Part shown: positions 33,817 through 49,254 of the stretch, in pieces | Layout: each line of letters starts with the position of its first letter | How positions within the stretch are numbered: the first letter of the stretch is position 1 | From: Candidatus Heimdallarchaeota archaeon | GTDB lineage: Archaea; Asgardarchaeota; Heimdallarchaeia; Heimdallarchaeales; Heimdallarchaeaceae | Assembly: GCA_018238545.1 (NCBI GenBank) | Contig: JABCTC010000008.1 | Location: forward strand, 31,161 to 95,160 | Length of the DNA: 64,000 nt | Direction of reading: 5' to 3' | Program-made: the position numbers and the translations under genes | Notes under the pieces: generated by a model | What the model was told of the DNA's origin: nothing | Seen by the model: only the letters and a program-made list of their open reading frames with translations | Database searches by the model: none

Positions 33817-33859
33817 TTATGGATGTAATCCTATAGGATCTCCTATTAAAAATAGCACT
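33817..33859 (-). pseudogene. Degenerate aspS 3'-end remnant 1
   Basis: Reads VLFLIGDPIGLHP*; 32/43 nt identical, ungapped, to remnant 2. Confidence 0.6.
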
Positions 33860-34017
33860 AACTCAACTGGTCATGTCATAGTTTGGGTGAAATGGACGCA
33901 GAAGGCGATTTCTTGGTTCTCTTAAACCTAAATATCTATTTCTTCAAACACTCTTAATGTTTCATTAACTTTTTGTGGTGTATAAATAAGAAAAGCTTCA
34001 GTAAATAACGATTTAGT

Positions 34018-35109
34018 ATGGTGGGGGGGAGAAGATTTTTAGCTATTGTTATGTTAGCGTGCATCTTATTACAAACTACTTCTTCTCCTAGAGCCATTTT
34101 ACCATATGGTGATTTATTTTATTCCAATTTTCTGGTTGTAGGAAAAGAGCTAGAGTGGAAAGTTAGTGTTCTTGATTGGTCAGGAAACGAATCAATTTAT
34201 TCTAAAGCCTATATTGACGATACTAACCTTTCTCAAGGAGATAACGTGAAACTATCGGTAACTCATGATCCTAATATTTTCCTCAATAATTTAATGACTG
34301 AAAGTGAATGGTTAAACATCTCCTTAAACGGACAAGAAAAGCGCTTTTATGCTTCTGATGTTCATCTTGGAGCTCATACTTGGATTTATGGGAATTTTTT
34401 CATTTCTCCAGTTATTGACAGAATAGAAGATAATTTTACACTATTATTTGAAAAATATTATGCCCACGTAAAATCTACAGAGTACAATAACACTGAATAT
34501 TACACAGATATAGGTGAGACGTATTCTATTGCCTTGATTAATACAGAGTATTTGCTCTTTAATATTTCAGATGTTCTTTTCAAGGAAACCTTCTATTATT
34601 GCGAATATTTTAATGCTGTTGATAATTGCTATGAAAATGAAGAAGAAAGCCTCTTCAAGCTATACAGCGTTTTTTATGAATCTGTGATAGATATTGAAAG
34701 AGGGACATTATTTTCTTATAAATGTTATATTAATTCTGTATGCAACTATACTTCTGAACTAATAGAGAACGAATATGCTGAAGACCACTATTACTTATTG
34801 ATAGAAAACAAAGATAAAACTACAGGCTACGCTAATGATTTAACTTCAACTAGTACAACAGTGTCTTATGAAACTATTTTTGGCATAAATGTCAACCATA
34901 TCGTTATTGGAATGGCGATATTCACTGCCTTATTTGCCACTGTGGAATGGTTCTATGCGCAGAAAAAAGAGAAGAAAATCAAACAAGTTGAAAAACGACA
35001 AATAGCTGGATTCGCAGAAAAGATTAAGAGAGCTATGCAGCCACAAGAGAAAAAGGACAAAGAAAAATCTTCACTCACAAAGTCTACTACATCTAACTTG
35101 TCAAAATGA
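34018..35109 (+). CDS. Secreted or cell-surface protein with C-terminal TM anchor
   Basis: Signal peptide, several N-x-S/T sequons, S/T linker, TM helix, basic tail. Confidence 0.75.
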   Translation: MVGGRRFLAIVMLACILLQTTSSPRAILPYGDLFYSNFLVVGKELEWKVSVLDWSGNESIYSKAYIDDTNLSQGDNVKLSVTHDPNIFLNNLMTESEWLNISLNGQEKRFYASDVHLGAHTWIYGNFFISPVIDRIEDNFTLLFEKYYAHVKSTEYNNTEYYTDIGETYSIALINTEYLLFNISDVLFKETFYYCEYFNAVDNCYENEEESLFKLYSVFYESVIDIERGTLFSYKCYINSVCNYTSELIENEYAEDHYYLLIENKDKTTGYANDLTSTSTTVSYETIFGINVNHIVIGMAIFTALFATVEWFYAQKKEKKIKQVEKRQIAGFAEKIKRAMQPQEKKDKEKSSLTKSTTSNLSK

Positions 35110-47852: not shown

Positions 47853-47904
47853 TAACCTTGTACATTCAATATTATACCAGTAACAAAGGAAAAAAATCTA
47901 AGTG

Positions 47905-49254
47905 TTAGGGATGCAATCTACTTGGATCTCTTGGTAATAATCTTGCTTCACGGATATTTGGTAAGTCTAGGAGTTGTTGAACAAATCTTTCAATACCTGT
48001 ACCTGACCCTCCGTGAGGAACACTCCCATTTCTAAAGAATTGAAGATAACTATCAACATCTTCTATCTTGAAATCTTTTTCTCCAGCTTGTTGAGTTAAG
48101 ATATCTATTCTATGTTCTCTTTGTCCTCCTGTAGTAAGCTCTTGTCCCTTGTATAGTAAATCAAATGATTTGGTTAATTTTGGATTTTCATCGTCTTTCA
48201 TGGTATAAAACGGTCTTACGTCCCATGGATATTGGTCGACGAAGACGAAATCTGATTTGTACTTCTCTTTGACATGTTTACCAATTATTGTCTCAGCTTC
48301 AGCATCTAAATCTTCGTAAAGCTCTAATTCTTTACCCTCAGATTGGAGAATTTCATTACACTCTGGTATAGAAAGAATGGGCCATTTTTTTGGTTGACTG
48401 TCAATAGATACACCTAATTCCTCAAAAGCTTGAGTTTTCTCCTTTTGTATTTTCTTAAGAGCATAACCTATGACCCCTTGTAAAACATTCATAATATCTT
48501 TTTGATTATCAATGTATGAAATTTCAAAATCGATAGAGGTGTATTCACACAGGTGTCGTGATGTATGATGCTTTTCAGCGCGGAATACTGGTCCAATTTC
48601 AAACACCCTCTCAAATCCTGCTATTAACATCATTTGTTTGTAAAATTGTGGTGATTGTGCAAGGAAAGCCTTTTTCCCAAAATACTCTATTTCAAAAACA
48701 CTAGCTCCGCTTTCTGTTGCCGATCCTACTATTTTTGGGGAGAAGAATTGCAAATAGTCATTTTTCATGAAGTATTCTTGAATTGCATAGGCTACGGCGC
48801 TTTCAATCTCAAATATTTGCGCAACTTTTCGATCCCTTAAATCTAGAAAACGATAATCCAGTCTTTTGTCAATGTTGGTTTCAATTTTATCACCAATTGC
48901 AATAGGATACTCTTGAGCTCTTTTGTTTAGAACAACTATTTCAGAAGGTAGAATTTCTTTACCTTTTGGTGCTGATTTGTTCTCAACAATAGTTCCTTTT
49001 ACTGCAATAATATCTCCTTCTTGGTAATCAATTTCAAATACTTCAGAAGTTACCTTTTTCTTTGGAAGAACTATTTGCACTAATCCTGTCCTGTCTTGGA
49101 GTTGAATGAATTTTAATCCACCAAGGTTTCTAACTTGTTGAATCCAACCTGCAATAAAAATATCCTCTAGTCCATCAATGAAAATTTTATCAATTGGTAT
49201 CTTTTTCTGAAGGTTCATGTTGTAATCCTCAATATTTTGACTGATTTTCCGCAA
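47905..49254 (-). CDS. aspS: Aspartyl-tRNA synthetase, archaeal type, probably non-discriminating (likely start at ATG 49218)
   Basis: OB fold GW...RNLGG, LAQSPQFYKQ, FRAE, PHGG.G.GIERF, PRDP.RL.P; Pro in L1 loop (SAPKG). Confidence 0.96.
   Translation of the reverse strand: MRKISQNIEDYNMNLQKKIPIDKIFIDGLEDIFIAGWIQQVRNLGGLKFIQLQDRTGLVQIVLPKKKVTSEVFEIDYQEGDIIAVKGTIVENKSAPKGKEILPSEIVVLNKRAQEYPIAIGDKIETNIDKRLDYRFLDLRDRKVAQIFEIESAVAYAIQEYFMKNDYLQFFSPKIVGSATESGASVFEIEYFGKKAFLAQSPQFYKQMMLIAGFERVFEIGPVFRAEKHHTSRHLCEYTSIDFEISYIDNQKDIMNVLQGVIGYALKKIQKEKTQAFEELGVSIDSQPKKWPILSIPECNEILQSEGKELELYEDLDAEAETIIGKHVKEKYKSDFVFVDQYPWDVRPFYTMKDDENPKLTKSFDLLYKGQELTTGGQREHRIDILTQQAGEKDFKIEDVDSYLQFFRNGSVPHGGSGTGIERFVQQLLDLPNIREARLLPRDPSRLHP

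Follow-up and report, generated by a model that had tools for sequence, protein, structure and literature searches.

The stretch of DNA analysed here (the window) comprises 64,000 nucleotides (nt), positions 31161-95160 of contig C102 in the genome of a Heimdall-group Asgard archaeon, in which the archaeal markers eRF1 (Pfam) and intron-bearing tRNAs (Rfam) were recognised. The genome under study (G000) is a metagenome bin of 3.6 Mb in 128 contigs, with an estimated contamination of 4%. This text is concerned with the 3' end of aspS, the gene for an aspartyl-tRNA synthetase, and with the DNA lying between it and a tRNA-Leu gene, where copies of the end of aspS alternate with cassettes of other genes. 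For comparison, 23 congeners, i.e., genomes of the same genus (G001-G023), were searched, and up to 20 kb downstream of aspS were retrieved for each of them; all genomes compared are draft bins. An original prediction, made from the sequence of the window, had described this region as a serial insertion hotspot at which the end of aspS had been replaced twice. The features on which the following account depends, given with their lengths in nt or amino acids (aa), are these:

32546-33445, minus strand: bactofilin-like gene, conserved far flank (Pfam Bactofilin, below the family cut-off)
33601-33731 (start at 33601 or 33604), minus strand: tRNA-Leu(UAA) with an insert of ~46 nt (Rfam RF00005, 39.3 bits; ARAGORN intron option)
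33732-33816, minus strand: native spacer between aspS and the tRNA gene, 85 nt (alignable with that of G010 and G016, which have empty sites)
33817-33843, minus strand: copy 3, the oldest fragment of an aspS end, in its original position (22/27 to the native end; continues into the native spacer)
33844-36417: E1 cassette, two genes encoding proteins of 421 aa (35093-36358, minus) and 363 aa (34018-35109, plus), neither with a known domain (nothing above the Pfam thresholds)
36418-36522, minus strand: copy 2, the lineage's own aspS 3' end in its displaced position, 105 nt with the stop codon (nearest to the functional ends of G021 and G010; E 5e-16)
36523-36546, minus strand: E2a junction arm, AGAAAT followed by 18 scrambled nt, ending in ...CCATACGAA (from reading the sequence)
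36523-39782: E2a module, with a two-transmembrane (2TM) protein (36547-36924, minus), a 592-aa protein (37345-39123, plus) and a 114-aa Mrr-like protein (39390-39734, minus), delimited by identity to G016
39783-47849, plus strand: E2b cargo, genes for a 224-aa protein (39850-40524) and for a giant membrane protein of 2351 aa (40797-47852), from open reading frames (ORFs)
47850-47904: post-stop stretch of ~55 nt common to G000 and G002, beyond which the cargo diverges (post-stop alignment of the two)
47905-48025, minus strand: imported aspS 3' end, the last ~121 nt, from motif 3 to the stop codon (identity profile against congeners)
47905-49254, minus strand: aspS, archaeal-type class II aspartyl-tRNA synthetase, 449 aa, intact (open frame; Pfam tRNA-synt_2, 1.3e-79, and an OB anticodon-binding domain)

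The genome holds a single full copy of aspS, besides distant class II paralogues on contigs C73 and C51. When the last 300 nt of the gene were used as a blastn query, only one other significant match was obtained genome-wide, namely copy 2, which extends over 36418-36534 on the same strand as aspS (blastn E 5e-16, tblastn 2.8e-14 across the whole 3.6-Mb genome). Its comparison with the functional end reproduces all the counts first given for it, i.e., 86/117 identical nt and 31/38 identical aa, with 17 of the 24 differing codons synonymous and no indels. It also begins, as had been stated, at class II motif 3, and since in-frame TGA codons cut it off upstream of that point, it is not a paralogue; the reservation that the remnant might prove to be the end of a separate paralogue is thereby removed. 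The third copy, for which a span of 33817-33859 had been proposed, is significant genome-wide but shorter than claimed, being recognisable only in its last ~27 nt (33817-33843) and not over 43; compared with the nearest relative's native end, these agree at 22 of 27 positions. It is invisible to BLAST, and only 3 of the 7.25 million positions in G000 reach at least 21/27, presumably the three copies themselves. From its stop to tRNA-Leu(UAA) we measured 85 nt, in agreement with the ~85 bp first given, and because this adjoining spacer aligns with the aspS-tRNA spacers of empty sites, which measure 79-86 nt in 18 relatives, copy 3 is taken to lie in its original position.

The sites of the congeners bear out the expectation that relatives should show empty aspS-tRNA-Leu sites and variable cassettes. 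In 18 of them the aspS stop is followed directly by tRNA-Leu, at the distance just given, and thereafter by the bactofilin-like gene and the same run of genes wherever the flank is assembled; the bactofilin-like gene follows tRNA-Leu in 18/20 loci, the short contigs of G016 and G021 ending before it. Four genomes (G000, G002, G019 and G021) are occupied between aspS and tRNA-Leu, and their cargo differs. G002 carries a remnant and orthologues of both E1 genes, then tRNA-Leu; G019 carries an 11-kb island, a 35-codon remnant and a further 2.8 kb, then tRNA-Leu; and G021 carries a frameshifted remnant with 16 nt of spacer. The cargo of G019 comprises a NosD-like beta-helix protein, an ABC transporter and an S8 peptidase, and that of G021 a HEPN protein; from one island to another the cargo is unrelated. 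Only the last 35-42 codons of aspS are ever present in the remnants, which have a constant start, and a search with the aspS end as query found no remnant in 22 other genomes of the same order. In this Heimdall-group genus, the junction between aspS and tRNA-Leu is best explained as a hotspot of accretion. In the closest relatives (G010, G016, G002, G017 and G021), contigs tend to stop 0.1-2.5 kb from the aspS 3' end, as expected if the strains in a sample differ at the hotspot.

In relatives, tRNA-Leu itself serves as a second attachment site. Partial copies of this gene bound cassettes in G012 and G023, starting at the anticodon loop or at the T arm, which we take to be the classical positions used by integrases; no recombinase was seen among the scanned ORFs of these cassettes. 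One cassette between partial tRNA-Leu copies, in G012 (L033:14724-16682), encodes a 652-aa protein with a TNB domain of the Cas12f/TnpB type. As for the tRNA gene of the window, ARAGORN overlooks it in a default run and calls it as tRNA-Leu(taa) with the intron option. Two insert-bearing tRNA genes are present (33601-33731 and 62346-62451), both found by Rfam and neither by default ARAGORN, so that tRNA counts from the default tool are too low for G000.

The body and the tail of aspS have different histories. Against G010 and G021, the G000 gene shows 91-99% nt identity up to alignment column ~1229 and 72-77% from column 1230 to the stop, whereas against G002 the identity is ~82% in the body and rises to 89-93% in the end. 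The last 105 nt of the functional end are 94% identical to those of G002 and at most 79% identical to every other end. Copy 2 behaves in the opposite manner, matching the functional ends of G021 at 99/105 positions (94%), of G010 at 96/105 (91%) and of G002 at 77/105, and its similarities thus mirror the relationships of the aspS body. Because the nearest relatives of body and tail are reversed in this way, the working tail (47905-48025) is the imported one and copy 2 (36418-36522) is the lineage's own; the discordance anticipated between the body and the last 117 nt was accordingly found, over the last ~105-121 nt. The remnants of G002 and G019 likewise resemble the native ends of their own clades. 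In motif 3, 20/23 genomes read GAPPHGG, and the three genomes with replaced ends read GSVPHGG, GSCPHGG and GACPHGG, the first of these being G000. Only G000, G002 and G019 are without APPHGG; G021 is occupied yet keeps it.

The cassettes themselves can be ordered by age. The E1 proteins have orthologues at the same place in G002 (73-76% aa identity), and the cassette is 81.1% identical to that of G002 over 2481 nt, the same level as in the right flank (81.5%) and in the body of aspS (~82%), so that E1 is at least as old as the split between G000 and G002. Both G010 and G016 are without E1 though closer to G000, so that it was lost precisely or replaced in them. The imported aspS end, at 94% between G000 and G002, is younger than E1. 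E2a is the most recent arrival, as its 3.2 kb are 95.5-98.4% identical to two segments of G016 (C15:1-897 and C287:1-1164), the chromosome of which is 86-87% identical to that of G000. The homology between G016 and G000 ends at 39782, and E2 is composite, with at least two modules (36523-39782 and 39783-47904). Thus, of the two cassettes said to have entered in sequence, the age order held (81% for E1 and 94% for the tail against G002, 95-98% for E2a against G016), but the second cassette is not a single unit. A two-step entry of E2 predicts a second remnant at the boundary between E2a and E2b, where BLAST found none. E2a was also considered as a transposon with terminal inverted repeats and rejected, as its ends score no better than shuffled sequences, 981/2000 of which reach the same score.

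The E2a proteins show weak, sub-threshold domain matches to Mrr_cat, REase_II and 2TM-effector. The 592-aa protein contains no Pfam domain and has ~30 relatives at 38-47% identity, all archaeal or metagenomic, which share the conserved motif GGFSE...PDIDI...FLKN; a search of genome contigs for this family gave only two distant loci. Its structure model, with a mean pLDDT (predicted local distance difference test) of 87, consists of helical repeats and a C-terminal alpha/beta domain, and Foldseek, run with the whole model, returned no significant PDB match, only helical-repeat look-alikes. One relative, in a metagenome-assembled genome (L063:5424-9722), is encoded directly after a type IIG-like methylase-specificity fusion, a neighbourhood which suggests a restriction-type partner; a defence role of the 592-aa protein is plausible. 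The 125-aa ORF of the 2TM protein (36547-36924) shares the reading frame of copy 2, from which it is separated by only two TGA codons, at a distance of 9 nt from each other; no support was found for recoded read-through of this ORF into copy 2. The E2b proteins gave no Pfam match. The 224-aa protein belongs to a multi-copy family of the genus, members of which were found at many loci in 16/24 genomes, and the last 799 aa of the giant protein had no match in the 23 congeners. In G001, ~18 kb past aspS (C1:73334-76944, at the edge of L040), a 232-aa protein homologous to that of 224 aa accompanies a homologue of the giant protein (36%). The pair formed by the 224-aa and the giant protein is a recurring surface-gene module in the genus.

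The same arrangement recurs elsewhere in the genome. In 15 congeners, the fumarase gene fumB is followed by fumA within 5-8 nt, whereas in G000 and five other genomes fumB is followed by a gene for a 906-aa protein. In G000 the fumarase operon is thus split by a cassette lying in the 3' end of the beta-subunit gene, and a native-type fumB remnant of 132 nt, with its own stop, adjoins the start of fumA. The functional fumB end is foreign and common to the carriers, with identities of 91% to G002 and 84% to G007, against 63-67% to G010 and G021 over the last 80 columns, and both fumB junctions coincide. When G000 was compared with itself at the nucleotide level, and C-terminal remnants were surveyed at the protein level, about nine loci of like design emerged, among them the following:

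C45:884-7433 (L056): fumarase cassette of ~5 kb, with a 906-aa unknown protein and a 602-aa SBP_bac_5 solute-binding protein
C51:51409-53491 (L057), C72:8847-11500 (L087), C73:46200-50057 (L088) and C100:7044-9698 (L089): further loci with tail remnants
C6, C9 and C40: further loci with tail remnants

At these further loci the final ~25-45 codons of a gene are met with again, in the same orientation and outside long ORFs, 0.2-3.4 kb downstream. They are candidates from the survey of G000 itself. At the four annotated ones, the genes concerned encode an ArsR-type regulator, an M3 peptidase, a fragment of a major facilitator superfamily protein and a beta-lactamase-like protein, and the cargo comprises a class II synthetase-like gene, an Lrp/AsnC regulator, an S8 peptidase and unknown proteins; no recombinase domain was present among their scanned ORFs.

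The junctions at aspS are placed with precision. The remnant starts at column 1238 (CACATGGTGG...) in G002 and G021 and at column 1246 (GG[C/T/A]AGTGG...) in G000, G019 and G016, so that all starts span 8 nt within the PPHGGSG codons, behind four unrelated upstream arms; in some genomes these codons form the near-palindrome CCACCA-CA-TGGTGG. The junction arm of E2a has the same length as the native aspS stretch and contains an in-frame TGA. The end of E2a (...CCATACG(A/G)AGG), 98% conserved between G000 and G016, joins two different aspS alleles at the same nucleotide. This fixity of position behind unrelated arms is the main argument in favour of a site-specific step. A TACGAA word present at three junction arms was considered as a shared core and rejected, as it was noticed post hoc and is absent from the G002, G021 and C51 junctions.

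The explanation we prefer, to which we give a probability of roughly 0.6, is that cassettes accrete at the gene's 3' end through site-specific recombination, with a recombinase acting in trans or since lost, in the manner of cis-mobilizable elements (CIMEs), and with subsequent homologous recombination between species. Incoming DNA would carry a ready-made version of the last ~40 aspS codons at one edge; recombination within the motif-3 codons (P-P-H-G-G-S-G) would join the resident body to the incoming tail, and the resident tail would be pushed downstream with everything behind it, the essential enzyme staying intact throughout. Repeated rounds would stack the cassettes, with the youngest adjoining the gene. 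In the window, E1 would have entered first, near the extreme 3' end, leaving the 27-nt fragment at 33817-33843 in place, and E2 next, at motif 3, moving the native end to 36418-36522 and supplying the new functional end at 47905-48025; E2 being composite, its nuclease-like part of 3.2 kb would have been the latest. This reading is favoured because direct repeats of the aspS end flank the inserts in one orientation, because 18 sites are empty and four are occupied by unrelated cargo, and because the functional end is foreign and the remnant native. It is favoured further because a single E2a end is joined to two aspS alleles, because the tRNA-Leu cassettes are bounded by partial tRNA copies, and because fumarase-beta repeats the pattern, with 15 empty and 6 occupied sites including G000. 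We infer that the joining was effected by a site-specific recombinase and that islands and ends later spread by way of the conserved flanks; the part played by homologous recombination in this spread is indicated by the imported end, which is 94% identical between G000 and G002 when the chromosomes are ~82% identical.

Several observations weigh against this reading. Searches for recombinases consisted of Pfam scans of the larger cassette ORFs and of six-frame family searches of G000, with the limit that draft assemblies may hide genes, and no recombinase was found in any cassette scanned, in G000 or in relatives; the earlier statement that the island contains no integrase accordingly holds for its scanned ORFs. 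In G000, Phage_integrase (PF00589) is found only on the small contigs C3 and C13, none of its matches lying in or near the islands, Resolvase (PF00239) gives seven small matches, all outside the island, and Cas1 gives one weak match, on C36, so that the marks of a casposon (Cas1-type casposase, terminal inverted repeats and a short target-site duplication) were not found in the island. Nor did the viral or metagenome collections contain a circular or otherwise free form, or an aspS end linked to a recombinase: the aspS end had no match in viral contigs, the 592-aa family had none there either, and in metagenome contigs neither the 592-aa protein nor the DNA pattern of the imported end had a match. 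The suggestion that recombinases might adjoin aspS fragments elsewhere thus found no support in these collections, and the integrase contigs C3 and C13 are without a copy of the attachment site, the sole match being a signal-peptide region. Moreover, E2a lies away from aspS in G016 (L060, i.e., C15:1-2100, and L061, i.e., C287), next to TldD/PmbA and to a paralogue of its own Mrr-like gene; as this E2a retains 30 nt of aspS-like sequence beyond its end, it has moved since it was last at an aspS gene. Finally, the left junction in G000 is foreign from column 1230 and the right one native only from column 1246, so 16 native bases (TGCTCCACCACATGGT) occur in neither E2 junction, for which reason a single conservative crossover is insufficient at aspS. 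Later import of the finished island, by double crossover or by break repair, may explain the gap.

The last point leads to an explanation by homologous recombination alone, which we consider unlikely, and in which circles or linear fragments bearing an aspS 3' fragment would enter by RadA-dependent single (Campbell-type) or double crossover and then pass between strains by way of their flanks. It would account for the want of a recombinase in every cassette and for the 94% identity of the imported ends on an 82% background, and the 16-nt gap fits the import of a pre-formed island by double crossover. In G021, furthermore, the repeats include 16-35 nt of non-coding spacer, which implies that the carried segment was copied from a chromosome. 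Accidental capture of an end should, however, leave scattered boundaries, whereas the remnants behind four unrelated arms all start within 8 nt; the switch in G000 likewise falls at the first bases of homology, the chance of which, for a random position within ~105 nt, is by a rough estimate a few percent, and the tRNA-Leu cassettes show boundaries of the integrase type.

A quite unlikely alternative is homing triggered by a nuclease. Free-standing, intron-less homing of the T4 seg/mob type overwrites a neighbouring conserved gene with a variant lacking the cleavage site, and spreads through repair from the carrier allele. Here the native near-palindrome at motif 3 would be cut, and repair from an island-bearing copy would import a resistant end together with cargo and an old remnant. 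All junctions lie inside the 14-bp palindrome region (columns 1234-1247), with native bases lost on both sides as after resection, and the first Pro codon is changed in all three replaced ends (SVPH, SCPH and ACPH, against APPH in 20/23), which destroys the left half-site; E2a also offers PD-(D/E)xK-like candidates for the nuclease. The palindrome, however, largely follows from the complementarity of Pro and Gly codons, and the candidate nucleases depend on the sub-threshold domain matches given above and on a motif, the 592-aa model being without a significant Foldseek match in the PDB. The G019 island is without genes of the E2a type, G021 is occupied with APPHGG unchanged, and classical homing leaves no displaced duplicate of the target end, whereas at aspS such duplicates are present. 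That the arrangement is an artefact of chimeric assembly, or a decayed second aspS, is very improbable despite the fragmented bin of 128 contigs, its 4% estimated contamination and the breaks of relatives' contigs at the aspS 3' end, since the whole region lies on one 95-kb contig, independent assemblies show the E2a junction (G016), the remnant with E1 (G002) and remnants (G019 and G021), the recurring part never exceeds the final 35-42 codons and has the same start, and copy 3 adjoins the native spacer.

The aspS array, as explained by site-specific accretion, belongs to a known kind, that of insertion into gene 3' ends with CIME decay and tandem accretion. In Streptococcus and other bacteria, integrative and conjugative elements (ICEs), integrative and mobilizable elements (IMEs) and CIMEs accumulate in tandem at the 3' ends of housekeeping genes (PMC5704250). 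As at aspS, they insert in the 3' end, and one flanking repeat holds the gene end, so that the gene is not disrupted; CIMEs have lost their integration genes and kept attL and attR, and newcomers insert alongside them to form ordered tandems, as here (PMC5704250). Those elements, in contrast, have identified tyrosine or serine integrases and conjugation partners, whereas no recombinase was found in the cassettes examined, and the present case differs further in its Asgard host, its long coding replacement (105-121 nt) and its non-reciprocal aspS junctions. In a survey of archaeal integrated elements, 14/68 lay in the 3'-distal region of a protein gene and gave it a new stop codon; as in the present work, empty and occupied sites were compared between species, and tandem re-use of one site was seen. 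The surveyed elements generally have short attachment sites, and each of their types (provirus, casposon or integrative-conjugative element) brings an integrase or casposase of its own, whereas only cargo is found here. Tycheposons, known from Prochlorococcus, are tRNA-anchored arrays of cargo with partial copies of the target's 3' end between cassettes, many of them without a recombinase and variable among relatives. This picture fits the tRNA-Leu cassettes of G012 and G023. Tycheposons, however, target tRNA or tmRNA genes and use a particular recombinase family, of which none was seen here, and the repeats of the window are those of aspS, at a protein-coding motif. Among Asgard archaea, the parts of the Heimdallarchaeum and Atabeyarchaeia accounts available to us describe elements that have integrases or aloposon gene sets and integrate at tRNA genes, next to an rRNA gene or in an 11-bp motif (PMC8813620, PMC11529989). 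Insertion near tRNA genes and a cargo of giant proteins and defence genes are points of likeness, and replacement of a protein-gene end is not among the modes described in those parts (PMC8813620, PMC11529989). What varies from the known kind is that the cassettes are cargo-only at every locus examined, that the coding replacements measure 105-132 nt, that docking is at a class II synthetase motif, and that the arrangement recurs across the genome and the genus.

The ways in which Asgard archaea acquire and shed genes matter for models of the gene flow around the time when eukaryotes arose, and very few Asgard mobile elements are understood. At a single essential gene, the locus preserves three gains in dated succession; relatives with empty sites provide natural controls, and a second, independent locus behaves in like manner. 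An essential aminoacyl-tRNA synthetase can, moreover, have its tail exchanged between species, with alteration of a motif 3 residue that is otherwise invariant in the genus. If no enzyme encoded elsewhere serves the cassettes, the locus would be an ordinary decayed accretion island in an unusual host; if they do depend on one, it would deserve to be sought, together with the means by which it recognises a coding motif. Most tentatively, Heimdall-group Asgard archaea might possess a trans-acting system, i.e., a host or helper recombinase or a homing nuclease, that moves recombinase-less, gene-end-replacing cassettes between species and docks them at conserved motifs within housekeeping genes (aspS at motif 3, fumarase-beta and others). 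If this conjecture were true, such a system would be a main route for the exchange of surface and defence genes in Heimdall-group archaea.

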